Source: a virus
DNA: 64,000 nucleotides
Reading direction: 5' to 3' (one strand)
IMG/VR virus record: IMGVR_UViG_3300045988_023742
Coordinates: 32,001-96,000 of that record
The notes below the pieces were generated by a model that saw only the letters and a list, made by a program, of their open reading frames with translations, searched no databases and was not told where the DNA came from. The translations under genes and the position numbers were made by a program. Shown here in pieces: positions 14,850 to 48,832 of the stretch (positions are counted from its first letter, which is position 1; the number at the start of each line of letters is the position of its first letter).

Positions 14850-15152
14850 TCATTCCTCCAAATTTACTTCAAAATCATCTTCAACCCAATCATTAAACTC
14901 TCCTACACTATTAGGGAGAGTTACTTGGTCCCTAACTGCTTGCTTTAAGTCACACTCAGAATAATCATAGCTAATACCATGATAACCATCTTCATCAGAG
15001 TATTCTTCAGCAATATAGTCAGTAACCTCTACCTCTACTGTCTTACTTAGTGTTATAGATACAGTGACCTCAATCTTTCTTGGTTCAGGGTCTACTTGGT
15101 TCCAAGGAGCATCTGAGGTATCTGAGCCAATAGGATAATCATAATTATTCAT
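14850..15152 (-). CDS. Acidic hypothetical protein (YPxGxD..APWN N-terminus)
   Basis: 100-aa ORF coupled by an ATGA overlap to the HicA-like gene. Strongly acidic. No recognisable HicB fold motifs. Confidence 0.6.
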   Translation of the reverse strand: MNNYDYPIGSDTSDAPWNQVDPEPRKIEVTVSITLSKTVEVEVTDYIAEEYSDEDGYHGISYDYSECDLKQAVRDQVTLPNSVGEFNDWVEDDFEVNLEE

Positions 15153-15352
15153 TTTCTTCGCCTTTTAATGTTTACATCTAAGTTATTTTCTTTAATAAGT
15201 CTATGAGCTATAACACTTTCTAGTTTATGAGGGATAGAGATATGTCTTCCCTTATCATTAACATATATAGCATGGTCACCACTATGTCTACTATAAGAGA
15301 ATCCATTCTTCTCTACTACCCTTATAAACTCTAATTGTGTGTATTGCTTCAT
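15149..15352 (-). CDS. hicA: HicA-like small endoribonuclease
   Basis: 67 aa. LEFIRVVEKNGF..SGDHAIYVNDKGRHISIPHK...LIKENNL parallels E. coli HicA (EFRRWLESQG..GSNH..RRSVMPRHP..ILKQLGL), including the catalytic His. Confidence 0.65.
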   Translation of the reverse strand: MKQYTQLEFIRVVEKNGFSYSRHSGDHAIYVNDKGRHISIPHKLESVIAHRLIKENNLDVNIKRRRK

Positions 15353-16077
15353 TTATACTTAGGATTATCAGGCTGTTCAGGATTTGTATTATCCCCATAC
15401 ACAGCCTTAAATTTTTCAAAATCACAGTACTTTATCTTGGTAATAACCCTCTCTCCGTTTCTAAACCTAAGACCACAGGTAGTTCTAAGAACTAAGCCCT
15501 CTGCATTAAGGTCTTTATCTTCAGAAATCTTAGACTTAAAGCCTTTCTTAACAAACTCTACAGCCTGTGGAATAGTCATATAGCCAATAAGAGGAACCAT
15601 AGGTACATTACATTTCTTAGCAATATCTTCACAGTCTTCTCTTTTAAGCCACCAGTCATTAATCTTGACATCAAAAAGAATGAAATCTACATCCTTGCTT
15701 ATATACTTTCCACCACACTTTTGAATGCCTGCACCATAGCCTTCACCATATATACATACAGTATCTTCAGGTGTCAATACAGGAAATACTTTAGCCCAGT
15801 CTACCTTGAAGAAAATACTTTCAAGCTTCTTAACAAGCTTACTAGGAAGCTCTGCTCTATTAGTTCGACCCTTGATAGTCACACCATAAATCCAAGGTTC
15901 TTTACCTTCTCCTGCTACCATAGTTACATAGATTCTGATGTTAGTGCCATCAATCTTCTCTGTACATTCCCAAAGGCAATCCTTTAAATAACTGAACTCT
16001 TCACAAGTATACTGTGAGGGAATAATAACATTCTTACCATCCCTCTTGAATAATGTATTAATTTTCTGATATTCCAT
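15349..16077 (-). CDS. ATP-dependent RNA ligase (Rnl2/Rnl5-like nucleotidyltransferase)
   Basis: Motif I KIDGTN (ligase KxDGxx), YGEGYGAGIQ, motif IV AEGLVLR, motif V ITKIKY. The N-terminal KINTLFKRD is typical of the RNA_ligase family. Confidence 0.75.
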   Translation of the reverse strand: MEYQKINTLFKRDGKNVIIPSQYTCEEFSYLKDCLWECTEKIDGTNIRIYVTMVAGEGKEPWIYGVTIKGRTNRAELPSKLVKKLESIFFKVDWAKVFPVLTPEDTVCIYGEGYGAGIQKCGGKYISKDVDFILFDVKINDWWLKREDCEDIAKKCNVPMVPLIGYMTIPQAVEFVKKGFKSKISEDKDLNAEGLVLRTTCGLRFRNGERVITKIKYCDFEKFKAVYGDNTNPEQPDNPKYK

Positions 16078-16297
16078 CTTCTTTTATTTTAATTAACCTA
16101 TCTGGATAAATGTAATCTGTCCATATATTATTTGAAGTTCTAACAACAACAACTTTCTTTGCACATAGCTTCTTTACTCTATACAATTCTACATTGTTGC
16201 TATAAGCATAGCCAATAACTAAGTCACCAACATGAAGTTGATGACCTAGTTTATCTTTGACTACTCTATGTAATTCTTCATATTCCTTCCTTGTCAT
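16058..16297 (-). CDS. Hypothetical protein
   Basis: 79-aa ORF in an operon-like tight array. Confidence 0.5.
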   Translation of the reverse strand: MTRKEYEELHRVVKDKLGHQLHVGDLVIGYAYSNNVELYRVKKLCAKKVVVVRTSNNIWTDYIYPDRLIKIKEDGISEN

Positions 16298-16532
16298 TTT
16301 CTATTCTATTTATTTCATCATTGAGATAAAAGACAGCTTTCTTTAAGTCTTCTACTCTCTTTTGTTTATCACTCATTCCTTCTTCAGACTTATGACCTGA
16401 CCTAAGAACATATTTAATTACATTTCCTAGATTGAAGTTCATGTGCCTAGTAATGTCAATGACCTCTATACCACATAACTTTTTAAGCCAAGTGTAATGA
16501 GAAGGATGATTTACTCTATCTGTATTTTCCAT
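16278..16532 (-). CDS. DUF3310-like protein
   Basis: The pattern NHPSHY...IEVIDI...FNLGNVIKYVLR...DLKKAVFYL matches the DUF3310 family common in phages. Confidence 0.6.
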   Translation of the reverse strand: MENTDRVNHPSHYTWLKKLCGIEVIDITRHMNFNLGNVIKYVLRSGHKSEEGMSDKQKRVEDLKKAVFYLNDEINRIENDKEGI

Positions 16533-16543
16533 ATTTTACGCTT

Positions 16544-18604
16544 TTAATGAATCCAATATGTTGGTAATGTTCCATCTTTAAGCCTAGATACCTCAGCATC
16601 AAGTGGGACAATCCTACAAATAAACTTTCCTGCTTTGACCATACACTCATGGAGTTTATTAGCAACTTCTTCTGCAATTTCTTCAGGAGCTTCAATATTA
16701 AACTCATCATGTGCTGGTATACAGAACTTAACCTTTCCAAACAATCCATTCTTTACTACCCAATTGAATAGATTTACTGCACATATCTTAAATATGGCAC
16801 TTCCCCTGCTCTGAATAGGATAGTTGATTGACTGTCTCTCAGAGGCAGACTTCCTTTTGAAATAGTGTCTTACCTCCTCGACAATAGGGTTAGTTGGGTC
16901 AGTAACTTTAAGTCTTCTGTAGGTATCCCAAAAGTCTTTACCAAACTTGTCTTGGGTAGACTTCAGCTCGTCATAGTCATATATATAAGCTCTATAACCA
17001 ACTTCAGGACATGTGTTTATATAGCCTAGCTGCATCACTATCTTTCTCTGATAAGCTTGATATGCTGCAACTCCCTTGAAACCCTTTCTGTAGTTAGCTT
17101 CAATCTGCCTAGCTTCTTCCTCTGGTATATGGTCTCTACCTATAAGAGTATTAGCATCACCACCATAAGCAAATGTAAACTCAGGAGCCTTAGCTTTCTT
17201 TCTCAAGTCAGGTCTAAGCTTCTTAACATCCTCTACAGGAATATCATGCAACTCTTCTGGATAAACCATCTTAGCTACCAAGCTATGCAAATCTCCGCAA
17301 CCATTAGTAAACAAGTCAATCATTGCAGTATCTTTAGCAATATTGGCAAGGATTACTGATTCCTCTCCACTATAGTCTGCACTAATCCACTTGTTACCCT
17401 TCTCAGCACAGAAGCATGCTCTAGTCTCGGCATCAGCAGGAAGATTTTGTAGATTAACCAATGGTACTTTCTTGCCTGGAATAACCTCTTTATCTTCTCC
17501 TCCACCAGAGCTATATCTATGAGTATCTGTTCCTATCTGATTGAAACTTGTATGTAATCTTCCAGTGACAGGATTTATAAGGTCAAGGAAGTTCTGACCA
17601 TAAGTACTTGTTACTTTCTGAGCAGCCTTGAACTCAAGATAGACTTCAGCTATAGGATGAACACTCTTTTGTCCTTCAATGACTGTTGCATCTACAGATT
17701 TCTTTATATCTCCTGTTGCTTTATCTCTTGTCTCAAGCTTAAAACCCAGTGACTCTAAGAATGGAATTACTTGTCTAGAGCTATTCCAATTGATATTACA
17801 AGCTGGACCAGCTTTAACAAAACCAAATAAGTCAGGCTCTACAATCTTTATGAACTTAGAAAGACTCTTATCTTCCTTATACATATCAACAACAAAGTTA
17901 TCAAGTCTTTCTTTAGCTTTATCTAGAGCTTCTTGGTCTTTAACCATCTTAGCCTTCCACCTTTCAGCATCAAGATTAACTCCACAAAACTCAAAATATG
18001 CAGTAGGAAGAATAGCTCTATTTTCTACCTCAAGAGCAAGCTTCTGACCTCTGGGGAGAAGAATTTCAAGCTGTTTGTTCATAATATCTTCTAGATACTT
18101 AACATCATTGGCAGAGTAAACTATAATCTTATCAGTGAGTTCATTTCTCCAAATGATTTCACCTCTGACAGATTTATCAAGTTCAATACCTAAATAGTTT
18201 TCTCCTGCTGACTTTAAGCTCAAACTATGCATACCACTAGGATAGCCAAGCCACCTCATCTTCTCAGCTATGAAACCATCATATAGTCTAGTAGGAACAA
18301 TACCATGATAGAACAAGAACTTTACATCAAATTTCAGATTCCAACCTATGAATAATCTGTCTGATTCTAGATATTCCTTATAGAGTGTAACATCAACAGT
18401 TGTACAGTCTATTACAACTTGGAAGTCTCGATTGCCAAGCTGTAATAATAAGAGCTTCTTGAGAAATGGGCTGAAACCCTGAGTTTCAGTATCTAGACCT
18501 ACAATAGTTAAAGGATTGAGGAGCCTCAATGACTCCTCAACACTTATAACCTTATAGGTTTCACTCTCAAATAAAGTTCTCTGACTAGTTACTAAGTAAA
18601 TCAT
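16544..18604 (-). CDS. Family A DNA polymerase with 3'-5' exonuclease domain
   Basis: Exo I LDTETQG, Exo III YSANDVKYL, Pol motif A DYSGEESVILA, motif B RKKAKAPEFTFAYGG, motif C PAHDEF. Confidence 0.9.
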   Translation of the reverse strand: MIYLVTSQRTLFESETYKVISVEESLRLLNPLTIVGLDTETQGFSPFLKKLLLLQLGNRDFQVVIDCTTVDVTLYKEYLESDRLFIGWNLKFDVKFLFYHGIVPTRLYDGFIAEKMRWLGYPSGMHSLSLKSAGENYLGIELDKSVRGEIIWRNELTDKIIVYSANDVKYLEDIMNKQLEILLPRGQKLALEVENRAILPTAYFEFCGVNLDAERWKAKMVKDQEALDKAKERLDNFVVDMYKEDKSLSKFIKIVEPDLFGFVKAGPACNINWNSSRQVIPFLESLGFKLETRDKATGDIKKSVDATVIEGQKSVHPIAEVYLEFKAAQKVTSTYGQNFLDLINPVTGRLHTSFNQIGTDTHRYSSGGGEDKEVIPGKKVPLVNLQNLPADAETRACFCAEKGNKWISADYSGEESVILANIAKDTAMIDLFTNGCGDLHSLVAKMVYPEELHDIPVEDVKKLRPDLRKKAKAPEFTFAYGGDANTLIGRDHIPEEEARQIEANYRKGFKGVAAYQAYQRKIVMQLGYINTCPEVGYRAYIYDYDELKSTQDKFGKDFWDTYRRLKVTDPTNPIVEEVRHYFKRKSASERQSINYPIQSRGSAIFKICAVNLFNWVVKNGLFGKVKFCIPAHDEFNIEAPEEIAEEVANKLHECMVKAGKFICRIVPLDAEVSRLKDGTLPTYWIH

Positions 18605-31220: not shown

Positions 31221-32027
31221 TTAATTATTAATAAATACTTTTGAAGCATCAAACTTTACTTCATTATTCTCATTAGATTCTGCTACTAAAATCTTTTTAC
31301 CTCTAAGATGTGGACATCTAGCCTCTCTTATTGTATTATCTCCTCCTTCAAAAGATATATAGGTCTTATTTCCATCTCTATAGATTAATCCTATTGCATC
31401 TGCTTCTCCACAGATAATGTCTGCTGCTTTACCAGCTAAATCCACTGACATTTCAGACATTTCTTGAGAATCTTTTCTAATCTGTTTATCTTTTACATGA
31501 GTAACTAGGATTAAAGTCTCACAGAGTGGTTTAAACATATCTATCATTTGTCTGATAGCTTTCCTTAAGTAGAGATAACCACTACCATTAGGTAGAAGCC
31601 TAACATCAGCTTTAGGGTCTATTACAGGTTGACCTGTCTTAGGGTCTTTATAAAGCATACCTTTATTATCCTTTAGATAACCCCAACCAGCTCCCATAGG
31701 AGTATTTCTATAAAGCTCTGCTGCATAGGGAATACTCATTTCTTCAAGTCTAGTAGCATTATCAATAGTTATGAACCTATAAGGAGCTTTGTGTAGTTCT
31801 TTACCTTTAGCTATAATAGCAGATTTAATTTCCTGCAAGTCTTTCATTGACCTAGCTTGTACTTTCATTACAGACAATGCTCTATATCCATCCTCTAAGT
31901 CAATAATAAGATTATCATCAATAGCTGCTATAAATGAGCTTTTTCCTTGTTTTGGTCTACCCATTATAATGAGTAGTTTAGGATTGTAGTTATCTACTAC
32001 ACTCCTTTCTGTTGGTAATTGAATCAT
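31221..32027 (-). CDS. RecA-fold / AAA ATPase (Sak4-like candidate)
   Basis: Walker A GRPKQGKSS and Walker B-like ILVTHV. 268 aa. Confidence 0.6.
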   Translation of the reverse strand: MIQLPTERSVVDNYNPKLLIIMGRPKQGKSSFIAAIDDNLIIDLEDGYRALSVMKVQARSMKDLQEIKSAIIAKGKELHKAPYRFITIDNATRLEEMSIPYAAELYRNTPMGAGWGYLKDNKGMLYKDPKTGQPVIDPKADVRLLPNGSGYLYLRKAIRQMIDMFKPLCETLILVTHVKDKQIRKDSQEMSEMSVDLAGKAADIICGEADAIGLIYRDGNKTYISFEGGDNTIREARCPHLRGKKILVAESNENNEVKFDASKVFINN

Positions 32028-37960: not shown

Positions 37961-38010
37961 AATTTTGTTTATTAAAATTAATATGAAATTAATAAATGTT
38001 TTCTAAAAAT

Positions 38011-38122
38011 AGCTACTTAATTGATACATTTGAAGTGTATTGCATTAACCACTATGCTAATTATCCATTCAGAAGAATAATATAGGACTTGAACCTATGA
38101 AATAATAGTATTGTAAGTAGCT
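38011..38122 (-). tRNA. Circularly permuted tRNA gene, anticodon UCA (opal suppressor type)
   Basis: Minus strand order: stem half AGCTACT, TACAATACTATTATTTC, then the 3' half ATAGG-TTCAAGT-CCTAT-ATTATTC (38074-38098), an 8-nt linker, then the 5' half GGATAAT-TA-GCAT-AGTGGTTA-ATGC-A-ATACA-CTTCAAA-TGTAT-CAATT (38019-38066), A, and stem half AGTAGCT. The acceptor halves pair 7/7 (one G-U). Confidence 0.6.
38107..38122 (-). repeat. Stem+TACAAYAYT element, copy g
   Basis: Minus strand AGCTACT-TACAATACT. The partner AGTAGCT lies at 38011-38017, on the far side of the permuted tRNA. Confidence 0.7.
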
Positions 38123-38126
38123 GAAG

Positions 38127-38252
38127 TAAGGCAGAGAAGAATCGAACTTCTGTTACAGGTACTAAATTTTTATTAATATAAATTAGTATTGTAAGTATCA
38201 TTAGATACTAATATTATTATAACCTGTGTCCTGACCACTAGACGACTGCCTT
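38127..38252 (-). tRNA. Glu-family tRNA gene interrupted by a 61-nt segment between the anticodon-stem strands
   Basis: 5' part AAGGCAG-TC-GTCT-AGTGGTCA-GGAC-A-CAGGT (38222-38252). 3' part ACCTG-TAAC-AGAAG-TTCGATT-CTTCT-CTGCCTT-A (38127-38160). 61 nt lie between them (38161-38221) instead of a 7-nt loop, and they carry the conserved hairpin + TACAATACT element. Confidence 0.6.
38185..38209 (-). repeat. Stem+TACAAYAYT element, copy f (local hairpin)
   Basis: Minus strand AGTATC-TAAT-GATACT-TACAATACT, inside the interrupted Glu-family tRNA. Confidence 0.7.
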
Positions 38253-38272
38253 ATGAAATTGGCACTATTCTT

Positions 38273-38346
38273 TATGCACTGATGGGATTGAACCATCTCT
38301 GATTGTACCAAAAAACAATTGTCCTAACCAATTAGACTAAACGCAA
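38273..38346 (-). tRNA. tRNA-Gln(UUG)-like with an apparent 8-nt anticodon loop
   Basis: TTGCGTT-TA-GTCT-AATTGGTTA-GGAC-A-ATTGT-TTTTTGGT-ACAAT-CAGA-GATGG-TTCAATC-CCATC-AGTGCAT-A. Flanked by the covarying stem TTGGCACT / AGTGCCAA. Confidence 0.6.
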
Positions 38347-38351
38347 AATTT

Positions 38352-38368
38352 ACTATTGTAAGTGCCAA
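38352..38368 (-). repeat. Stem+TACAAYAYT element, copy e
   Basis: Minus strand TTGGCACT-TACAATAGT. The partner AGTGCCAA lies at 38259-38266, just 3' of the tRNA. Confidence 0.7.
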
Positions 38369-38372
38369 AAAG

Positions 38373-38483
38373 TGGGGAAGGTAGGACTCGAACCTACATA
38401 GTGATAGTTTATGAAACCTATTGCTTATTGATTTAGTATTGTAAGTATCTAAGATACTATTAAACCATTTTAGCTACTTCCCC
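38373..38483 (-). tRNA. tRNA-like gene interrupted after the D arm (contains a TTCATAA, CAU-type loop)
   Basis: Perfect acceptor GGGGAAG/CTTCCCC, D arm GCTA-AAATGGTTTAA-TAGT and T arm GTAGG-TTCGAGT-CCTAC. About 55 nt lie between the D and T arms, including AGTATC-TTA-GATACT-TACAATACT. Confidence 0.45.
38435..38458 (-). repeat. Stem+TACAAYAYT element, copy d (local hairpin)
   Basis: Minus strand AGTATC-TTA-GATACT-TACAATACT, inside the second interrupted tRNA-like gene. Confidence 0.7.
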
Positions 38484-38500
38484 TTGTATAGTCACTATTT

Positions 38501-38573
38501 ATATACATGTTAGAATCGAACTAACTACACTTGAATTACAAATTCAATGCTCTACCAAATGAGCTAATGCTAT
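38501..38573 (-). tRNA. tRNA-Thr(UGU), imperfect acceptor stem
   Basis: ATAGCAT-TA-GCTC-ATTTGGTA-GAGC-A-TTGAA-TTTGTAA-TTCAA-GTGTA-GTTAG-TTCGATT-CTAAC-ATGTATA. The acceptor pairs fully only if one A is bulged. Flanking stem AGTCACT / AGTGACT. Confidence 0.6.
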
Positions 38574-38574
38574 T

Positions 38575-38590
38575 AGTATTGTAAGTGACT
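38575..38590 (-). repeat. Stem+TACAAYAYT element, copy c
   Basis: Minus strand AGTCACT-TACAATACT. The partner AGTGACT lies at 38490-38496. Confidence 0.7.
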
Positions 38591-38612
38591 GAATATCTGT
38601 AGACACTAAATT

Positions 38613-38686
38613 ATCACATTGTTGGAATCGAACCAACTACTATCTGCTTAAAAGGCTGATGCTCTAACCAAATGAGCTAAATGTTA
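38613..38686 (-). tRNA. tRNA-Lys(UUU)
   Basis: TAACATT-TA-GCTC-ATTTGGTTA-GAGC-A-TCAGC-CTTTTAA-GCAGA-TAGTA-GTTGG-TTCGATT-CCAAC-AATGTGA. Flanking stem TAGACACT / AGTGTCTA. Confidence 0.65.
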
Positions 38687-38690
38687 TAAT

Positions 38691-38707
38691 AATATTGTAA
38701 GTGTCTA
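38691..38707 (-). repeat. Stem+TACAAYAYT element, copy b
   Basis: Minus strand TAGACACT-TACAATATT. The partner AGTGTCTA lies at 38600-38607. Confidence 0.7.
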
Positions 38708-38712
38708 ATGGT

Positions 38713-38743
38713 GAATGTAGGAGGTCTCTCTCCTCCTACATTC
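38713..38743 (-). other. Perfect 12-bp hairpin (terminator or structured RNA)
   Basis: GAATGTAGGAGG-7 nt-CCTCCTACATTC. No U-tract follows it on the minus strand. Confidence 0.5.
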
Positions 38744-38800
38744 TATTGATACTTGTTGTTGAACATTAATACGCTATTCTAATCTATGAAATACAGTTAT

Positions 38801-38815
38801 AATGTTGTAAGTATC
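38801..38815 (-). repeat. Stem+TACAAYAYT element, copy a
   Basis: Minus strand GATACT-TACAACATT, right after the stop of the vWA gene. A possible partner AGTATC lies at 38748-38753. Confidence 0.55.
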
Positions 38816-38824
38816 ATTAGGTCC

Positions 38825-40648
38825 TTAAAGGACATTTTCTCTCACTATGTCATATCTATTACTCCTGAACAATGACTGTAAAGGAGTATAAACATCCATA
38901 ATATCCATATCTTTGAAGTTAGTTAAGAACTGCTCAATCTGTGCTACATTAGCAGGGATATAAATCATGTTCTCAATACCTTCAAATCTGTTGATAGAAG
39001 CACTTCTGAAGCCCCAATCACCATCTACATCAATAGCTACAATATATGGCTTAAATCCAAAGTATCTTTGACACTTCATCATAAAGTCATTCATTGAAGC
39101 TTCAGGAGACCACAATGAGTTCCACTCACCATCACTGATGATAGTCCATACAGGATAGTTCTTCAGAGCATCAAGTATCTGAGGGTTATTCTGACACTCC
39201 CTATGCAAATCATCAGGTATTTTACTTATGTTAGTACCACCACCTTGGAATACTGCATTACAGAAGTTCCTAATAGATTGATAGTTCTCACAGAAGCTCT
39301 TCTTAGGGTCAACAAAAGGAGTCTGCTTTACCTTTACTGTTTCACTTCTGATGAAAGAGTTTACAGAGTTATTCTTTCTGTCTATACAAGTATGCCAATG
39401 ACTATTAGTATTGAAGAAACCAAGTAAGTTTCTACCATCATCATCTGGGTTCTTACATAAACATACAGAAGCTAAGAATGTAGCAAAGTTGAAAGGTTTA
39501 CCTCTCATAGAACCTGAATCATCTATGATTACAAGACTATTATAAGGAAGATTGACCTTAGTCATGAAGGTTTCAAGCTTTAGCTCATCTACATTGTCAT
39601 TACAGATGTCATTATATAGCTCTTTGAAATTAGTAGCTCCTGTATTGACCTTAGCCTGCTTTGCAACTTTCTTCAACTTGATTTTATCCTCTTCTGTAGC
39701 TTGCCCCTGTCTAACTTTTTCCTCTAGAACTCTCTGTTCCTCTTGTTTAGACTCCTTGTACTTCTCCCATTCAGTGAGCCAAGGCTGGAACTTAGAATAT
39801 TTATCCTTCTCAGTATCTTTAATCTTACTGTAAAGGATTCTATTCTTAACTCTAAACCTTGCCTGTGAAGGAAGCTTGTCAAACCAATCAATAAATGATT
39901 GTTTGTCAAACTCATTGATTTTACCTGTAGAGAATAGTACTGACTCAAGGTCACCATTGTAATCCTTTCTCCACTTCCTATAGTCCTTGAAGTTAGCATA
40001 GTTCTCATTTACTTCATACTCCCAACCCATAAGTTCTGAGAGCATTATAAGCAACTTAACCTTATCTTCCATTACCTTTTTAGTCTCAGGAAGCATCTTG
40101 CTATGACCACTTCTTTTGCTTACTCTAGGAAGTGTCAAGAATTTAGCAACAAGAGTTTTATTGAAAGGATTATTACCATTGATAACCTTATAGAGATAGC
40201 TTGCAATAACCTCCCTATATTTTGCCTCAGCAAAGAGATTATGTATTCTAATAACTCTAGAGCCTTTAGTCTGTACTCTATTTCTGAACAGCAAATCAAA
40301 GCAAGTATATTCATTGAATAAACCTGCTTCAAGGAACTTCACAAATTGAGCTTGATGCTTATTCCACATCCAATCAAGAACTACTTGGAAACCTTCTCTA
40401 TTGGCATTACCACCACTATCCTTCTTAACACCCTTAAAGATGTTATGCTGTCTAGCTGTAATATCACCAATTGAGAAAAGTAAACTAAAGAACATTTGCT
40501 TATGTTCTTTATTTCCTCGAACTTCTGACCAGCAAGCATCAAGTAATGATGCATCAATTGTGTTGCCTACACTCTGAAAGAGTTTAAGGCAATTTCTTAA
40601 TCCATAAAAAGGATTATCGTTACTTTTGTTTAACTTTACCTGTACCAT
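38825..40648 (-). CDS. von Willebrand factor A domain protein (DUF2828-like; helical N-terminal region + C-terminal vWA)
   Basis: MIDAS motif VIIDDSGSM (DxSxS) in the C-terminal half. The long helical N-terminal region with LLFSIGDITARQ resembles DUF2828-type phage/eukaryote proteins. Confidence 0.7.
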   Translation of the reverse strand: MVQVKLNKSNDNPFYGLRNCLKLFQSVGNTIDASLLDACWSEVRGNKEHKQMFFSLLFSIGDITARQHNIFKGVKKDSGGNANREGFQVVLDWMWNKHQAQFVKFLEAGLFNEYTCFDLLFRNRVQTKGSRVIRIHNLFAEAKYREVIASYLYKVINGNNPFNKTLVAKFLTLPRVSKRSGHSKMLPETKKVMEDKVKLLIMLSELMGWEYEVNENYANFKDYRKWRKDYNGDLESVLFSTGKINEFDKQSFIDWFDKLPSQARFRVKNRILYSKIKDTEKDKYSKFQPWLTEWEKYKESKQEEQRVLEEKVRQGQATEEDKIKLKKVAKQAKVNTGATNFKELYNDICNDNVDELKLETFMTKVNLPYNSLVIIDDSGSMRGKPFNFATFLASVCLCKNPDDDGRNLLGFFNTNSHWHTCIDRKNNSVNSFIRSETVKVKQTPFVDPKKSFCENYQSIRNFCNAVFQGGGTNISKIPDDLHRECQNNPQILDALKNYPVWTIISDGEWNSLWSPEASMNDFMMKCQRYFGFKPYIVAIDVDGDWGFRSASINRFEGIENMIYIPANVAQIEQFLTNFKDMDIMDVYTPLQSLFRSNRYDIVRENVL

Positions 40649-40671
40649 TCTGCTAATGTTTTATTTTATTT

Positions 40672-40689
40672 TTGTAAGTAACGTAGTTA
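40672..40689 (-). repeat. Stem+TACAA element, copy h, upstream of a protein gene
   Basis: Minus strand TAAC-TAC-GTTACT-TACAAAAAT. The ACTTACAA core ends about 23 nt upstream of the ATG at 40648. Confidence 0.5.
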
Positions 40690-42423: not shown

Positions 42424-42705
42424 CTATAGTGTATTCTTCTCTGGCTGAACAGTAGAACTTCCACTATTCTTTCTGTTCTTATAGATAGTCTTAGGACCTA
42501 CTGCTAAGAAACTTACACCCAATTTAGCTGGATTATTTGCAGGAGCTATAACTTGATACCAATGTATATAACAGGCATTACTTGTTCTACCTTCAAGCTT
42601 AGTTGCAGCATATCTGCAAGCTTCTTTAATGTTATGAGGATTAGCTGTAATAGCCTGGACTAGAATATTATTCTCCTCATCAGTCCATCTTTTCTTTGTT
42701 ATCAT
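42424..42705 (-). CDS. Myb/SANT-like DNA-binding protein
   Basis: KRWTDEENNILVQAI...NACYIHWYQV shows the W..E...L / W spacing of Myb-type HTH repeats. Confidence 0.55.
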   Translation of the reverse strand: MITKKRWTDEENNILVQAITANPHNIKEACRYAATKLEGRTSNACYIHWYQVIAPANNPAKLGVSFLAVGPKTIYKNRKNSGSSTVQPEKNTL

Positions 42706-42743
42706 ACTCTTGTTTGCTTTATTATTCTTATTTCTTGTTTTTG

Positions 42744-42815
42744 TGCCCTTAGTAAGACTCGAACTTACATTCCAAGTTTAGGAAACTTGTGCTCTATCCA
42801 TTGAACTATAAGGAC
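42744..42815 (-). tRNA. tRNA-Arg(CCU)
   Basis: GTCCTTA-TA-GTTC-AATGGATA-GAGC-A-CAAGT-TTCCTAA-ACTTG-GAAT-GTAAG-TTCGAGT-CTTAC-TAAGGGC-A. Confidence 0.8.
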
Positions 42816-42946
42816 AGTTGGGGCTTTTTATTCTTCAAGTGTGTGCCCTCTTCTATTCCTTCTTCACACTTATGGCTATAGAAGTAACTAGCTAGCTTAG
42901 TACTTTAGATTCACCATACTCTTTACACTTTGCAACCCTCAAAGTG

Positions 42947-43126
42947 TCAGTTAGAAAACAATGCTATTACATCTTCAAAAGTATATTCAACCTTATTTAA
43001 ATCTAGTGATTTAGTAGGTTTAATAACCTTTGAAGACTCTTTATTGTATTCTCTAGCAACAACATCAACCTCTTCATCTAATAAAGAATGGTTTATTGCA
43101 AAGTAATATAGTTCTTTAATTGTCAT
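42947..43126 (-). CDS. Small hypothetical protein (59 aa)
   Basis: Hand-translated MTIKELYYFAINHSLLDEEVDVVAREYNKESSKVIKPTKSLDLNKVEYTFEDVIALFSN. Followed by the hairpin CACTTTG-7 nt-CAAAGTG. Confidence 0.4.
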   Translation of the reverse strand: MTIKELYYFAINHSLLDEEVDVVAREYNKESSKVIKPTKSLDLNKVEYTFEDVIALFSN

Positions 43127-43141
43127 AACTATTAACTTTTG

Positions 43142-43215
43142 TGCATCCAGTGAGACTCGAACTCACAACCCACAGCTTAGAAGGCTGTTGCTCTAATCCA
43201 TTGAGCTATGGATGC
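43142..43215 (-). tRNA. tRNA-Arg(UCU)
   Basis: GCATCCA-TA-GCTC-AATGGATTA-GAGC-A-ACAGC-CTTCTAA-GCTGT-GGGTT-GTGAG-TTCGAGT-CTCAC-TGGATGC-A. Confidence 0.85.
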
Positions 43216-43280
43216 TTCAATTAGATTATTTCTAAACCATGTATGTTACAGTATTTATCAGCTAGCTCTCTTAATGCAAG

Positions 43281-43354
43281 TGGGTCAATAGGGACTTGAA
43301 CCCTAAACCTTCACATTATGAGTGTGCTGCTCTAACCACTTGAGCTATAGACCC
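43281..43354 (-). tRNA. tRNA-Met/Ile2(CAU)
   Basis: GGGTCTA-TA-GCTC-AAGTGGTTA-GAGC-A-GCACA-CTCATAA-TGTGA-AGGTT-TAGGG-TTCAAGT-CCCTA-TTGACCC-A. Confidence 0.8.
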
Positions 43355-46154: not shown

Positions 46155-46226
46155 TGCCTCTTAGTGTAATGGTTAGCACACAAGTTTTTGGCACTTAGAG
46201 TAGGGGTTCAAATCCTCTAGGGGCAA
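46155..46226 (+). tRNA. tRNA-Gln(UUG)
   Basis: TGCCTCT-TA-GTGT-AATGGTTA-GCAC-A-CAAGT-TTTTGGC-ACTTA-GAGT-AGGGG-TTCAAAT-CCTCT-AGGGGCA-A. Confidence 0.75.
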
Positions 46227-46299
46227 CTAGAAAGTTAGTTGTTTGTTTGTTGTTTATATTGATTAACCTCCTTAATCTGTGAAGATGAAAGAGGTGCAT

Positions 46300-46371
46300 A
46301 GAGCTATCATCTAGTGGTAAGGATGCAAGGTTTTCAACCTTGTCACAGGGGTTCAAATCCCCTTGGCTCTA
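46300..46371 (+). tRNA. tRNA-Glu(UUC)
   Basis: AGAGCTA-TC-ATCT-AGTGGTAA-GGAT-G-CAAGG-TTTTCAA-CCTTG-TCAC-AGGGG-TTCAAAT-CCCCT-TGGCTCT-A. Confidence 0.85.
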
Positions 46372-46377
46372 CTATAT

Positions 46378-46450
46378 AGGCTATGTGGTGTGATGGTTTG
46401 CATATCACACTGTCAATGTGAATGATAGGGTTCAATTCCCTCATAGTCTG
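46378..46450 (+). tRNA. tRNA-Asp(GUC)
   Basis: Anticodon arm TCACA-CTGTCAA-TGTGA, T loop TTCAATT, acceptor GGCTATG/CATAGTC. The ends are uncertain by 1-2 nt. Confidence 0.7.
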
Positions 46451-46454
46451 CAAT

Positions 46455-46545
46455 GGAGGTTTAAGCCTAATTGGTAAGGCAGTAGTCCTGAAAACTACTA
46501 GTAATCACTAATAGTGATGTGCAAGTTCGAGTCTTGTAGCCTCCT
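46455..46545 (+). tRNA. tRNA-Ser(UGA), long variable arm
   Basis: GGAGGTT...GTAGT-CCTGAAA-ACTAC, long variable arm, GCAAG-TTCGAGT-CTTGT-AGCCTCC-T. Confidence 0.8.
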
Positions 46546-46549
46546 CAAT

Positions 46550-46633
46550 GGAGAGTAAATCCTAGAGGTCTAGGAACCAATCTGCTAAATTGTGTGCTAA
46601 TTAATAAGTGTATTTCGAGTATACTTCTCTCCG
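46550..46633 (+). tRNA. tRNA-Ser(GCU), long variable arm
   Basis: GGAGAGT...CCAAT-CTGCTAA-ATTGT, long variable arm, T loop TTCGAGT, 3' TCTCTCC-G. Confidence 0.7.
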
Positions 46634-46640
46634 CTTTAAT

Positions 46641-46713
46641 ATAGTAGTAATGCAATAGGTAGCATACTGCATTTGGGATGCAGTAGTTGTAGGTTCAAGT
46701 CATATCTACTATA
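46641..46713 (+). tRNA. tRNA-Pro(UGG)
   Basis: ATAGTAG-TA-ATGC-AATAGGTA-GCAT-A-CTGCA-TTTGGGA-TGCAG...TTCAAGT...CTACTAT-A. Confidence 0.75.
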
Positions 46714-46717
46714 CTAT

Positions 46718-46791
46718 GGGGCAAGTGATGTAATTGGCTAACATACTTCCTTTGCAAGGAAGAATTAAGGGTTCAAGTCCCTCTTGCTCCA
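46718..46791 (+). tRNA. tRNA-Ala(UGC)
   Basis: GGGGCAA...CTTCC-TTTGCAA-GGAAG...TTCAAGT...TTGCTCC-A. The G3:U70 alanine identity pair is present. Confidence 0.85.
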
Positions 46792-46851
46792 CACTAACTA
46801 TAGTGATAGTTAAGTTGATAATTCACATTATTAACTCTAAATTATATTGAT

Positions 46852-46956
46852 ATGAAAAAGATTTTATCTTTAATTAAGAAAGGTGTAAATGCTTATTTAA
46901 ATGCTTTGGCTAAATGTCCTTACACACCATCAGGAACTATTCCAGTAGGAATCTAG
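46852..46956 (+). CDS. Very small ORF (34 aa) inside the tRNA array
   Basis: MKKILSLIKKGVNAYLNALAKCPYTPSGTIPVGI. The only ATG-initiated ORF I noticed in a 200-nt gap of the array. It ends in a GGAACT..AGTTCC hairpin. Confidence 0.2.
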   Translation: MKKILSLIKKGVNAYLNALAKCPYTPSGTIPVGI

Positions 46957-46991
46957 TTCCTTTGATGTAGAGTTGATAATATAATATATTT

Positions 46992-47065
46992 GGGTCCTTA
47001 GCTCAATAGGTTAGAGCAATTGACTGTTAATCAATAGGTTGTGGGTTCAAGTCCCACAGGTCCCG
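46992..47065 (+). tRNA. tRNA-Asn(GUU)
   Basis: GGGTCCT-TA-GCTC-AATAGGTTA-GAGC-A-ATTGA-CTGTTAA-TCAAT-AGGTT-GTGGG-TTCAAGT-CCCAC-AGGTCCC-G. Confidence 0.85.
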
Positions 47066-47072
47066 CATAAAT

Positions 47073-47144
47073 GGGTAGATAGTTTAATGGTAAAACCCTA
47101 GTCTCCAAAACTAGAAGATGTGAGTTCGAGTCTTACTCTATCTG
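47073..47144 (+). tRNA. tRNA-Trp(CCA)
   Basis: GGGTAGA-TA-GTTT-AATGGTA-AAAC-C-CTAGT-CTCCAAA-ACTAG...TTCGAGT...TCTATCT-G. Confidence 0.8.
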
Positions 47145-47148
47145 CAAT

Positions 47149-47221
47149 GGGAAAGTAGCAAAGATGGTCTATGCAGAGGACTGAAAATCCTTGGATGTAA
47201 GTTAGATTCTTACCTTTCCCA
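47149..47221 (+). tRNA. tRNA-Phe(GAA)
   Basis: GGGAAAG...GAGGA-CTGAAAA-TCCTT-GGATG-TAAG... T loop TTAGATT ...CTTTCCC-A. Confidence 0.8.
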
Positions 47222-47226
47222 CATAA

Positions 47227-47300
47227 GGGTATATAACTCAGTTGGTTAGAGTACTTGACTGATATTCAAGAAGTCATAGGTTCAAATCCTATTATACCCA
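47227..47300 (+). tRNA. tRNA-Ile(GAU)
   Basis: GGGTATA-TA-ACTC-AGTTGGTTA-GAGT-A-CTTGA-CTGATAT-TCAAG-AAGTC-ATAGG-TTCAAAT-CCTAT-TATACCC-A. Confidence 0.85.
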
Positions 47301-47302
47301 CT

Positions 47303-47375
47303 GTGTTAGTAGCTCAATTGGCAGAGCAAAGGTTTGTGGTTCCTTAGGTTGTGGGTTCAAATCCCATCTAACACC
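47303..47375 (+). tRNA. tRNA-His(GUG)
   Basis: GTGTTAG-TA-GCTC-AATTGGCA-GAGC...TTGTGGT loop...GTGGG-TTCAAAT-CCCAT-CTAACAC-C. Confidence 0.8.
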
Positions 47376-47394
47376 CTAATTATGTATATATAAT

Positions 47395-47700
47395 ATGGTA
47401 GTAACAGACAACACTATAATAGAATCAGCTACTCCAAAGTATCCTGAATTAATGAGTTCAGATGCTGAAGATAAGCTAAAGAAAGCTTTCTACAATCTAA
47501 GAGAAAGTAAATCTAAACTATCTAAACTTCGTATGGAAGTAATAGAATTAGAGACAAAAGTTAAGAAAGAAGAAGAGTCATATAGGAATATATCTGACCT
47601 ATTTGAAATAACATTTGCTAAGAAAGAAATACAAGAAATAAAGAATACAGTTAATATGGGGATTATTAATCCAAGTGACTATAGAAATACTAATATATAA
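47395..47700 (+). CDS. Hypothetical coiled-coil protein
   Basis: 101-aa ORF between the two tRNA arrays. Confidence 0.55.
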   Translation: MVVTDNTIIESATPKYPELMSSDAEDKLKKAFYNLRESKSKLSKLRMEVIELETKVKKEEESYRNISDLFEITFAKKEIQEIKNTVNMGIINPSDYRNTNI

Positions 47701-47701
47701 T

Positions 47702-47932
47702 ATGTGGTTATTGGAAAGTAATAGACCTAAACATCTACTCTATGCAATACCTTCAGCCTTCATAGGTACTATATTATTCAGTACTGGTTTAGCTTTTGGT
47801 ATGGAGTTTAAAGACAAACAATATGGTGGTAAGTTTGATTGGATTGATATAGCTGCCACAGAAATAGGTGGATTAATAGGTCAATCTTTGCAGATTATCT
47901 TTATTCTAGTACTAAAGAATCTACTAGTATAA
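47702..47932 (+). CDS. Small membrane protein
   Basis: The start MWLLES sits right after the upstream TAA. Two TM helices. Confidence 0.5.
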   Translation: MWLLESNRPKHLLYAIPSAFIGTILFSTGLAFGMEFKDKQYGGKFDWIDIAATEIGGLIGQSLQIIFILVLKNLLV

Positions 47933-47940
47933 ATAATGAT

Positions 47941-48026
47941 GCCTCCATGTTGGAATAGGTATACAAGAGGCACTTAAAATGCCTTGAGCAGTAATGCTCA
48001 TGTGGGTTCAAGTCCCACTGGAGGTA
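47941..48026 (+). tRNA. tRNA-Leu(UAA), long variable arm
   Basis: GCCTCCA...AGGCA-CTTAAAA-TGCCT, variable arm TGAGCAGTAATGCTCA, GTGGG-TTCAAGT-CCCAC-TGGAGGT-A. Confidence 0.8.
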
Positions 48027-48031
48027 CTTAT

Positions 48032-48103
48032 GCTTCCTTAGTTCAATGGATAGAACAAGACACTTCTAATGTTTAAATGAAAGTTCGATTCTTTCAGGAA
48101 GTA
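48032..48103 (+). tRNA. tRNA-Arg(UCU)
   Basis: GCTTCCT-TA-GTTC-AATGGATA-GAAC-A-AGACA-CTTCTAA-TGTTT-AAAT-GAAAG-TTCGATT-CTTTC-AGGAAGT-A. Confidence 0.85.
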
Positions 48104-48239
48104 CCTAATAAAGCTATAAATTCTAGAATAATGTAGCAACGTAACTCTTAGGGTTTCTGAGTATAAAATACTTGTAGAGTAAGACTAGTCCCTTTTGGAT
48201 GTCGTAGAATCCACCTTTAGCCAAGGGAGTTGGCTATAT

Positions 48240-48321
48240 ACCCTCTTGATGGAATGGTAGACATAAAGGTCTTAGAAGCCTTGACCATAATGGTGTAAGA
48301 GTTCGAGTCTCTTAGGGGGTA
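48240..48321 (+). tRNA. tRNA-Leu(UAG), long variable arm
   Basis: ACCCTCT...AAGGT-CTTAGAA-GCCTT, variable arm, AAGAG-TTCGAGT-CTCTT-AGGGGGT-A. Confidence 0.7.
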
Positions 48322-48352
48322 CTAAAAATAATTGTAAAAAGTTGCTAAAAAG

Positions 48353-48384
48353 TTTGGTAGTTTCAAATAAATTGCTTACCTTTG
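48353..48384 (+). promoter_or_regulatory. Bacteroidota-type promoter (second copy of the cassette)
   Basis: TTTGgtagtttcaaataaattgctTACCTTTG. The upstream aaaaagttgctaaaaag also matches the 46.09-kb copy. Confidence 0.65.
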
Positions 48385-48398
48385 CAACTGTTAAAGAT

Positions 48399-48471
48399 GG
48401 TCTTTTAGTATAAAGGTTTAGTATCCTTGCTTTGTAACCAAGGGATGTAAGTTCGAGTCTTACAGGGACCT
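48399..48471 (+). tRNA. tRNA-Thr(UGU)
   Basis: GGTCTTT-TA-GTAT-AAAGGTTTA-GTAT-C-CTTGC-TTTGTAA-CCAAG-GGAT-GTAAG-TTCGAGT-CTTAC-AGGGACC-T (C31:C39 mismatch). Confidence 0.7.
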
Positions 48472-48473
48472 CT

Positions 48474-48548
48474 ACTATAAAATAGATTGTATAGGTTAAT
48501 GCGGTAATATCTATACACTCTATGCCTACTGGAGAACTATTTTATAGT
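48474..48548 (+). ncRNA. Candidate 75-nt structured RNA (three-way junction)
   Basis: 12-bp closing stem ACTATAAAATAG / CTATTTTATAGT enclosing the hairpins TGTATAG..CTATACA (7 bp) and CTCT..GGAG. It does not fold as a tRNA. Confidence 0.3.
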
Positions 48549-48564
48549 TTATTGTAGGCTATAT

Positions 48565-48637
48565 ACAGGGATGTTAGCAGTGGTAGCTAGTTAGCCTCAT
48601 AAGCTAAAGGTCGTGGGTTCGACTCCCACTCCCTGAA
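48565..48637 (+). tRNA. tRNA-Met(CAU)
   Basis: D arm TAGC-AGTGGTA-GCTA, anticodon arm TTAGC-CTCATAA-GCTAA, T arm GTGGG-TTCGACT-CCCAC, 3' TCCCTGA. The 5' end is uncertain by 1 nt. Confidence 0.75.
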
Positions 48638-48832
48638 GACTTACATAGAAAGAACCTCCACGTGGTGTAAGTTGGGTAATGCTAATCTTTCTAGTTTAAT
48701 TCTCAAAAGAATGAAACATGGGGTACATATATCAAATGGATATGCAAAAACCCTTAATGGAGGAGTTAGACAGAAAATAAGTAGGTGTGCTAAGGGAAAA
48801 CTGAAAACTGCTTATAAATTTATTTGGAAGAT
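48638..48832 (+). mobile_element. About 195-nt insertion bounded by a 17-nt duplication of the tRNA-Met 3' end; homing-endonuclease remnant
   Basis: GACTCCCACTCCCTGAA occurs at 48621-48637 and again at 48833-48849. The interior encodes a NUMOD/IENR-like DNA-binding tail. Confidence 0.45.

Follow-up and report, generated by a model that had tools for sequence, protein, structure and literature searches.

A covarying helix-and-motif element in a phage tRNA-like gene cluster suggests a Y-like RNA array beside a divergent Ro60-like gene

Y RNAs are the RNA partners of the Ro60 protein and are encoded beside Ro60 genes in >250 bacteria and phages (Chen et al. 2014, PMC4201824). At least one Y RNA per species, YrlA, carries a tRNA-like domain, and several Y RNAs are processed out of one precursor (PMC4201824). 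In the stem made by the Y RNA ends, Ro60 makes its main contacts with a conserved 5'-strand motif, and in Mycobacterium smegmatis YrlA, which has a 7-bp acceptor stem, cleavage by RNase P and the addition of CCA take place in vivo, with both halves remaining bound to the protein (PMC4201824). In the literature we searched, nothing was found on Ro60 or Y RNAs in crAss-like phages except that gp96 of crAss001, a TROVE protein, is mentioned as an early gene (PMC8375218); the same searches returned no report of an RNA partner of gp96 and nothing on permuted or intron-containing tRNAs in phages. Here we analyze a window of 64,000 nucleotides from a viral genome (IMG/VR record IMGVR_UViG_3300045988_023742, positions 32,001 to 96,000), in which a minus-strand cluster of tRNA-like genes at 38 kb begins 9 nt past the stop codon of an open reading frame (ORF) of 607 codons, ORF607. 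The cluster is built around a repeated element, a helix of 7-8 bp (5'-N-G-N-Y-A-C-U paired with 5'-A-G-U-R-N-C-N) and a single-stranded UACAAUAYU that continues the 5' strand of the helix. The element is real and base-paired, and its pairing is under selection. We propose that helix and motif represent the predicted docking module of ORF607, probably a Ro60-like protein, and that the cluster is a Y-like RNA array built on tRNAs and tRNA mimics, a reading to which we assign a probability of about 0.6.

On the machine reverse complement, six exact copies of ACTTACAAYAYT are found on the minus strand between 38011 and 38816, starting at 38812, 38702, 38586, 38446, 38196 and 38118, and a seventh copy, ACTTACAATAGT at 38363, has one mismatch to ACTTACAAYAYT. 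This agrees with a preliminary description of this DNA, which had counted seven core copies within 820 nt of the minus strand. The further copy that it placed at 40.67 kb reads ACTTACAAAAAT (40668-40679); it is present and paired but looser, deviating from the YAY portion of the TACAAYAYT pattern. The 3-5 variable bases located 5' of ACT are complemented by the bases following a partner AGT. By script, the partner of TAGACACT is AGTGTCTA at +92, that of AGTCACT is AGTGACT at +87, that of TTGGCACT is AGTGCCAA at +94 and that of AGCTACT is AGTAGCT at +98, and the pair GATACT/AGTATC is used three times, once at +56 and twice in local hairpins with loops of 3 and 4 nt. All five pairs had been given correctly before. 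In the 40.67-kb copy CGTTACT pairs with AGTAACG at +52, spanning the ATG of ORF607, and the arms are closed in the minimum free energy (MFE) folds of 8/8 units (ViennaRNA). The features of the locus are as follows.

38825 to 40648, minus strand: ORF607, probably a Ro60/Rsr-like protein that has diverged; an alpha-helical domain forms its N-terminal part and a vWA domain with a DDSGSM MIDAS motif its C-terminal part.
40618 to 40683, minus strand: U0, the ORF607 mRNA leader, with 5' arm CGUUACU at 40677-40683, motif UACAAAAAU at 40668-40676 and 3' arm AGUAACG at 40618-40624.
38747 to 38816, minus strand: U1, helix UGAUACU/AGUAUCA followed by UACAACAUU; its cargo is a 47-nt hairpin, not a tRNA.
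38716 to 38740, minus strand: GC-rich hairpin between U1 and U2, UGUAGGAGG-agagaga-CCUCCUACA, with no U-tract after it.
38600 to 38707, minus strand: U2, helix UAGACACU/AGUGUCUA followed by UACAAUAUU; its cargo is tRNA-Lys(UUU) at 38612-38687.
38490 to 38590, minus strand: U3, helix AGUCACU/AGUGACU followed by UACAAUACU; its cargo is a Thr(UGU)-like tRNA at 38502-38573.
38373 to 38483, minus strand: u4, a tRNA-like gene whose D loop contains the element in hairpin form (AGUAUC at 38453-38458, GAUACU at 38444-38449, motif at 38435-38443).
38259 to 38368, minus strand: U5, helix UUGGCACU/AGUGCCAA followed by UACAAUAGU; its cargo is a Gln-like tRNA at about 38272-38347 with an 8-nt anticodon loop.
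38127 to 38252, minus strand: u6, a Glu-like body with the element as a hairpin at the position of the anticodon loop (AGUAUC at 38204-38209, GAUACU at 38194-38199, motif at 38185-38193).
38011 to 38122, minus strand: U7, a circularly permuted tRNA-like domain, helix AGCUACU/AGUAGCU followed by UACAAUACU.

The partner arm lies 56-98 nt downstream of the motif-bearing arm in U1, U2, U3, U5 and U7 and 15-16 nt upstream of it in u4 and u6, where a local hairpin results. We thus recover the three arrangements recognized earlier, namely stem halves that enclose a tRNA, a hairpin inside a tRNA gene, and halves that enclose a tRNA whose 3' half comes first, and the latter two are indeed circular permutations of one topology. 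The scope given to the element in the preliminary description has to be changed in two respects. The element does accompany the tRNA genes of the 38-kb cluster, but the leftward tRNAs at 42.7-43.4 kb are without it, and besides tRNA units, which are borne out, it also brackets non-tRNA cargo and an mRNA start.

We compared the window with 26 IMG/VR loci encoding homologues of ORF607, all of which (26/26) contain the same kind of cluster directly downstream of the ORF607 homologue and on the same strand. Among the 167 sense-strand copies of ACTTACAA in these loci, perfect pairing with a partner reaches at least 6 bp in 153 (92%) and at least 7 bp in 130, compared with 11% and 5.5% of control sites, respectively. 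There are only 8 antisense copies, none of them paired. (Scans of IMG/VR with 14- and 15-mers returned mostly chance matches and became informative only after filtering for paired copies.) A survey of these relatives yielded 151 non-identical elements, 121 enclosing and 30 hairpins, with the consensus U-A-C-A-A-(U/A)-A-N-(U/C) on the 5' strand after the helix and an A plus a U-rich stretch after the 3' arm; the enclosed distances are bimodal, at about 43-59 nt and 74-116 nt. The arms occur as 25 different 7-nt sequences, all Watson-Crick paired, with three or four pair types at each of helix positions 4, 5 and 7. The helix stops sharply after 7-8 bp, the pair beyond it being a mismatch in 121/121 enclosing copies. 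An assay that does not select on complementarity considered each ARAGORN tRNA with the motif at most 32 nt upstream (33 unique): 33/33 have an AGT no more than 22 nt downstream, and in 30/33 the arms are complementary at all four free helix positions, compared with 14% for shuffled partners.

Orthologous units show double substitutions. AGTCACT/AGTGACT of U3 is replaced by AGTTACT/AGTAACT in L125 (AGUUACU/AGUAACU in the RNA), and TTGGCACT/AGTGCCAA of U5 is replaced by TTGGTACT/AGTACCAA in L127, L129 and L130 (UUGGUACU/AGUACCAA in the RNA); both changes are compensatory. U0 is conserved in nearly all relatives, and its outermost pair varies between C-G, U-A and A-U although the 3' arm is coding sequence, in the window for the codons Ser-Asn-Asp; the unit encloses the AUG at 40646-40648. 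Pairing far above controls, the variety of Watson-Crick arms and the double substitutions in orthologues together demonstrate that the pairing is under selection, so that the preliminary argument from compensatory changes holds and the check it called for, covarying stems in homologous clusters of related phages, has come out in its favor. With 167 copies on the sense and 8 on the antisense strand, and with a conserved 9-mer that is asymmetric, the evidence points to pairing at the RNA level. A test of G-U versus A-C asymmetry, which can distinguish RNA from DNA pairing, is uninformative for the window lineage because its helices are entirely Watson-Crick; G-U pairs occur only in the crAss001 helices described below.

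The cargo of the units is diverse. The MFE fold of U1 closes the arms (z=-2.4). In U2, tRNA-Lys is called by ARAGORN and by Rfam (55 bits; fold z=-4.0), the U3 cargo scores 51.3 bits with the Rfam tRNA model, and that of U5 is found by both programs; an Rfam scan of the whole cluster returned tRNA matches only. Removal of hairpin, motif and 9 nt from u4 gives a perfect D arm, and the orthologues in L124 and L130 then become canonical tRNA-Lys. In u6, ARAGORN (option -i) calls a tRNA(uua) with a 54-nt insert, and the anticodon stem covaries across this insert (C27-G43 in the window, U27-A43 in L124). The order in U7 is T arm, a loop-closed acceptor hairpin (3' strand, short linker, 5' strand), UA, D arm and an anticodon-like arm, and the unit adopts a permuted cloverleaf in its MFE fold. 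Covariation of the U7 T arm and acceptor hairpin is seen in 15 homologues, where 8/17 pairs show compensatory changes, and permuted tRNA-like domains account for at least 20 of the large cargoes in relatives. The interrupted genes keep covarying stems and are therefore under selection; the U7 and u6 RNAs are not decaying. L121-L131 conserve the GC-rich hairpin between U1 and U2, and relatives show compensatory changes in its arms, which there read UAUAGGAGG/CCUCCUAUA. The arms AGACACU/AGUGUCU hold tRNA-Lys in the window (38600-38707, minus strand), L006 and L132 and a non-tRNA cargo of ~40 nt in L121-L127 (for example L121 5413-5478 and L122 5937-6001); the same arms with different cargo suggest that cargo can be exchanged or lost while the helix stays.

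The closest described counterpart is YrlA, as known from Salmonella, M. smegmatis and phages such as the mycobacteriophage Bxz1. The Rfam consensus (RF02553) aligns to Bxz1 190 nt upstream of its Ro gene in the order closing stem, T arm, acceptor-like hairpin, UA, D arm, closing stem, and the domain order of U7 matches it. As in YrlA, the cluster lies beside a Ro60-like gene, in the window as well as in 26/26 related loci and in crAss001; the stem is made of distant 5' and 3' segments with conservation mostly on the 5' strand; several RNAs would share one precursor; and in U7, by fold and by covariation in the 15 homologues, a T arm, closed acceptor hairpin and D arm lie inside a stem. The 7-bp acceptor stem would be usable by RNase P and the CCA-adding enzyme in both cases. 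In L121, L126 and L127 the U7 orthologue is without an anticodon arm, and the conserved helix takes its place, as in YrlA. Since YrlA shares the U7 order and is not spliced, a counterpart of the "permuted tRNA" that does without splicing is already known, contrary to the preliminary statement, whose author knew of no equivalent in bacteria or phages; YrlA-type Y RNAs of Salmonella, mycobacteria and phages have this architecture. The two systems differ in the sequence of the binding site, an NGNYACU helix plus UACAAUAYU here and GNCGAA(N)G in YrlA. They also differ in that the modules of the window lineage occur in arrays of 4-8 per genome, are found on the ends of apparently complete tRNAs or as hairpins in D and anticodon loops, and include one copy on the start codon of the Ro-like gene itself, and in that the protein is too diverged for Pfam TROVE and the RNA does not match the Rfam YrlA model.

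Several lines of evidence connect ORF607 to the Ro60 family, and we consider it likely that it is a strongly diverged Ro60/Rsr-type protein. The sole PHROG match of the 607-aa protein is family 850, "RNA-binding protein" (E=5.6e-4), which is matched by 61/69 diverse representatives of the ORF607 family (best E=3.7e-21) with no other family recurring, and some of these alignments are collinear over both domains. Bxz1 gp220, annotated as a Ro-like RNA binding protein, and crAss001 gp96, annotated as a TROVE domain protein, belong to the same family (E=2.8e-140 and E=9e-33, respectively). An alignment of the ORF607 profile to Bxz1 Ro with hhalign gives 81% probability (E=1.2e-5) over the vWA domain, the MIDAS DxSxS residues Asp-376, Ser-378 and Ser-380 are invariant in the ORF607 family, distant members have weak Pfam VWA matches, and the best fold match in BFVD is a phage vWFA protein (E=3.7e-4). 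A tblastn search of GenBank phages with ORF607 gave no match, the link to crAss001 having come via synteny and PHROGs: ORF607 occupies the position of gp96, and downstream of it come two small ORFs, followed by genes for SPFH/band-7, HKD-nuclease and helicase proteins.

We found that the element and the Ro-like gene occur together. All IMG/VR contigs with at least three paired elements (14-mer scan, filtered for pairing) carry an ORF607 homologue, down to 36% identity, and cr116_1, the closest GenBank phage, has a non-Ro gene at that position, no ORF607 homologue and no paired element in the 100 kb examined. In crAss001, gp96 is followed by an unannotated gap of ~900 nt (MH675552 95,964-96,870, minus strand; L265 7965-8870), which contains four sense-strand copies of UUACUUCAA versus 0.38 expected, each just 3' of a helix. 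Two of them lie inside tRNA-like genes with inserts of 82 and 103 nt and one encloses a short cargo; an element around the gp96 start codon is not evident. By its sequence, this gap is the counterpart of the window cluster, with the same grammar of a helix plus UUACUUCAA. The two phages thus share gene position, PHROG, an 800-900-nt non-coding stretch after the gene, tRNA-like genes with inserts, and a repeated helix followed by a UAC... motif. They differ in the protein, which is 472 aa long with a recognizable TROVE domain in crAss001 and 607 aa long without one here, and in the motif, UUACUUCAA versus UACAAUAYU. Protein-RNA co-evolution would be expected to produce such a combination, in which both the motif and the Ro-like protein differ, the latter strongly.

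In the Y-like array that we propose, the cluster and the Ro-like gene would be transcribed together as an early transcript. The docking module would be fused to the acceptor end with leader pairing to trailer in U2, U3 and U5, form an extra arm in the D loop or replace the anticodon loop in u4 and u6, respectively, and close a circularly permuted tRNA-like domain in U7, as in bacterial YrlA; U1 would carry a hairpin cargo only. The arrangements other than that of YrlA may thus be the same two modules, a protein-binding helix and a tRNA-like domain, joined elsewhere. Host RNase P, 3' trimming and CCA addition would act on the tRNA-like domains, as for M. smegmatis YrlA, and permuted units would give rise to two-piece RNAs kept together by the helix and the acceptor stem. 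The Ro-like protein would bind the helix and the motif, chiefly via the conserved 5' strand. Its binding to the copy at the AUG of ORF607 would result in feedback repression, and this copy is probably an autoregulatory element. The purpose of such a system may, speculatively, be tRNA handling, protection or mimicry during infection.

Other observations weigh against this proposal. The Rfam YrlA model (RF02553) does not match 37990-38860 even at E<=10, and the Ro-site GNCGAA(N0-1)G was not seen on reading the cluster sequence, for which no dedicated pattern search was made; NGNYACU-UACAAUAYU is present instead. Pfam searches return no match at all for ORF607 and detect no TROVE domain in its family, and PDB sequence and profile searches with ORF607 returned no match. 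The AlphaFold2 (AF2) model of ORF607, with an all-helical N-terminal and an alpha/beta C-terminal part, is of mediocre quality (pLDDT 70, pTM 0.47), and the top Foldseek matches of this model in the PDB are HEAT/ARM solenoids, which are weak (E>0.02). Several cargoes resemble decoders, with canonical 7-nt loops and a constant C32-U33...A37-A38, features that a pure protein tether would not need. Finally, u6 cannot decode with the insert in place, and yet its anticodon stem is conserved.

Alternatively, the interrupted and permuted units may be cut and rejoined, in analogy to the tRNA genes with a bulge-helix-bulge (BHB) motif of Archaea and Cyanidioschyzon merolae and the split tRNAs of Nanoarchaeum, a comparison drawn in the preliminary description. 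An endonuclease would read the helix and motif and an RNA ligase rejoin the ends; inserts would leave u4 and u6, enclosed units would circularize, and the permuted U7, once RNase P and 3' processing have acted, would be a functional tRNA with colinear halves. Both systems have 3'-half-first genes (the order 3' half, linker, 5' half is found in U7 and at least 20 units of relatives), inserts at non-canonical positions, a helix formed by break-flanking sequences, and interrupted and permuted forms that are circular permutations. The restored D arm of u4, the stems that covary across inserts and the ARAGORN scores, 108-119 for u6 as an intron-containing tRNA and 117-123 for rotated permuted units, equal to normal tRNAs, would all be accounted for, and the phage does encode the RNA ligase (15349-16077, PF09414) and HicA-like RNase (15149-15352) noted before. 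We nevertheless consider splicing unlikely. Instead of a BHB (two 3-nt bulges on opposite strands, 4 bp apart), the element has a single helix of 7-8 bp, of which only one strand is extended, by 9 nt. Brute-force deletion and rotation evaluated with ARAGORN places the best junctions 0-15 nt ahead of AGU and 0-29 nt past the motif, varying by unit, and such inconsistent offsets reject a ruler-type cut site. The ligase/HicA pair, which we had considered as the dedicated enzymes of the element, was rejected for this role, as it is 94% identical in cr116_1, which is without the element and the Ro-like gene, and it is the Ro60-like gene that co-varies with the element. The Pfam and PHROG scans, which were confined to 26 ORFs in the neighborhood of the cluster and of the ligase, identified no splicing endonuclease, EndA-type or other, and no ligase besides that one. 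Excision would be destructive or pointless where the element encloses an mRNA start codon or short non-tRNA cargo, some permuted units are entirely without an anticodon arm, and the same topologies are known from unspliced Y RNAs; nothing in the locus requires ligation. A search for the colinear, spliced U7 junction gave chance matches only in IMG/VR and none in JGI contigs, a weak test with little power because the lineage is on just two JGI contigs.

A plain processing signal, at which a host or phage endoribonuclease would cut a polycistronic transcript into units and trim the ORF607 leader with the Ro-like protein uninvolved, appears slightly less probable still. The helix is located at unit boundaries, its 3' arm is followed by an A and the U-rich stretch, and where the spacers of a unit are long, leader-trailer pairing lengthens it; the processing stems by which leaders and trailers of rRNA and tRNA operons pair, which are RNase III sites, likewise consist of distant complementary segments that bracket a structured RNA. 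RNase III requires duplexes far longer than 7-8 bp, however, and the RNase III-like stem offered earlier as an alternative thus fits poorly: the helix here is too short, ends sharply, comes with a conserved single-stranded 9-mer and also occurs as internal hairpins. Copies buried within tRNA-like genes, the strict co-occurrence with the Ro-like gene, and the motif switch from UACAAUAYU to UACUUCAA between phages with highly diverged Ro-like proteins are all left unexplained. The other alternative raised at that time, a hairpin-type promoter, takes TACAAT as a -10-like or phage RNA polymerase promoter ahead of each small gene and ORF607. It is improbable, even if the motif is strand-specific, precedes tRNA 5' ends by 0-13 nt and the ORF607 ATG by about 20 nt, and has TAYAAW variants that look like a -10 hexamer. 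A promoter has no use for a covarying complementary arm 35-115 nt downstream, and it is implausible that 800 nt should contain seven promoters, with two of these inside tRNA-like genes. A sigma-70 two-hexamer scan found 10 sites versus 11.9 expected from shuffles, none centered on the motif, and promoter and terminator scans showed no enrichment; the crAss001 counterpart UACUUCAA is not -10-like, and the motif is unlike TAnnTTTG, the -7 consensus of Bacteroides promoters. A mobile or recombination element at the DNA level, MITE- or attC-like and inserted in and around tRNA genes, would explain inverted repeats that flank cassettes and AGACACT arms that enclose either tRNA-Lys or a 40-nt cargo, depending on the phage. 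It is highly improbable given the asymmetry of a 9-mer conserved on one arm only, the strict strand bias, the covarying stems retained by interrupted genes, the arm within conserved coding sequence, and the finding of no recombinase or transposase among the scanned neighbor ORFs.

The anticodons of the units deserve separate consideration. Orthologous units keep the body and the loop framework (C32, U33, A37, A38), whereas the anticodon triplet changes between close relatives: UCA, GUU, UUU, GUC and GAU in U7, UUA, UGG and UUC in u6, CAU and UUU in u4, and UGU, GGU, CAU and UAU in U3. Two units, U5 and u4, have 8-nt anticodon loops. A constant framework with a changing triplet suggests that the anticodon is "seen" by something, be it a synthetase, a nuclease or the ribosome, and the fast turnover hints at a conflict with the host over tRNAs. 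We thus keep alive the idea that some units are decoders or decoys. In a stronger version, which we regard as doubtful, the tRNA-embedded units would be real decoders matured via a Ro-like ribonucleoprotein, either by protein-guided cutting and ligation or as two-piece tRNAs clamped by the helix. If so, the fast-switching anticodons (UCA, UUA, GUU, GUC, UUU, GAU and CAU among others) would let the phage re-tune or replace tRNAs hit by host anticodon nucleases, and the protein-guided route would mean that a virus of bacteria has genuine tRNA introns and permuted tRNA genes. The ORFs of the window tile it without breaks under translation table 11, with no stop-codon recoding apparent, which makes a need for UCA (U7) and UUA (u6) as suppressors unlikely.

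At 46155-48638 on the plus strand, 16 canonical tRNA genes are packed tightly into another cluster, which contains zero copies of the element; this indicates that the element marks a distinct class of tRNA-like genes and not phage tRNAs generally. This cluster ends with tRNA-Met (48564-48638), at whose last base an HDV-like ribozyme candidate starts (48638-48694, plus strand; Rfam RF02682). In a search of 300 nt it scores 23.2 bits (E=0.024), short of the gathering score of 44, and it resembles the HDV-like ribozymes that have been reported beside tRNAs in gut phages. Close to the element-free tRNAs at 42743-43354, in the early region, a 93-aa ORF encodes a Myb-like DNA-binding domain (42424-42705, minus strand; PF00249, E=9e-6). 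Three short overlapping ORFs of 79, 84 and 77 aa adjoin the RNA ligase gene (16058-16749, minus strand), the middle one being a DUF3310 protein that matches C-terminal parts of PHROG "nucleotide kinase" families. In distant relatives a phage-encoded tmRNA gene (RF00023, 49-70 bits) lies a few kb upstream of the Ro-like gene (L006 5507-5902, L140 2689-3201 and L146 2647-3198).

The Crassvirales rank with the most abundant viruses in the human gut, yet little has been done to characterize their early genes. Our analysis provides the crAss001 TROVE protein and its relatives with a concrete, testable candidate RNA partner, and the question can be addressed directly, as crAss001 has been cultured and RNA-seq data exist (PMC8375218). 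tRNA finders miss or mis-call these genes, and "suppressor" anticodons reported in crAss-like genomes may thus not belong to decoders. If ORF607 docks on the module as predicted, the Ro60-Y RNA system would be extended by a new recognition motif, by arrays of up to eight modules, by topologies new for Y RNAs, with the module on the ends of complete tRNAs or inside D or anticodon loops, and by a likely autoregulatory copy on the mRNA of the Ro-like gene itself. The many variants with fast-changing anticodons in a lytic phage would then represent a natural experiment on tRNA mimicry by bacterial Y RNAs.

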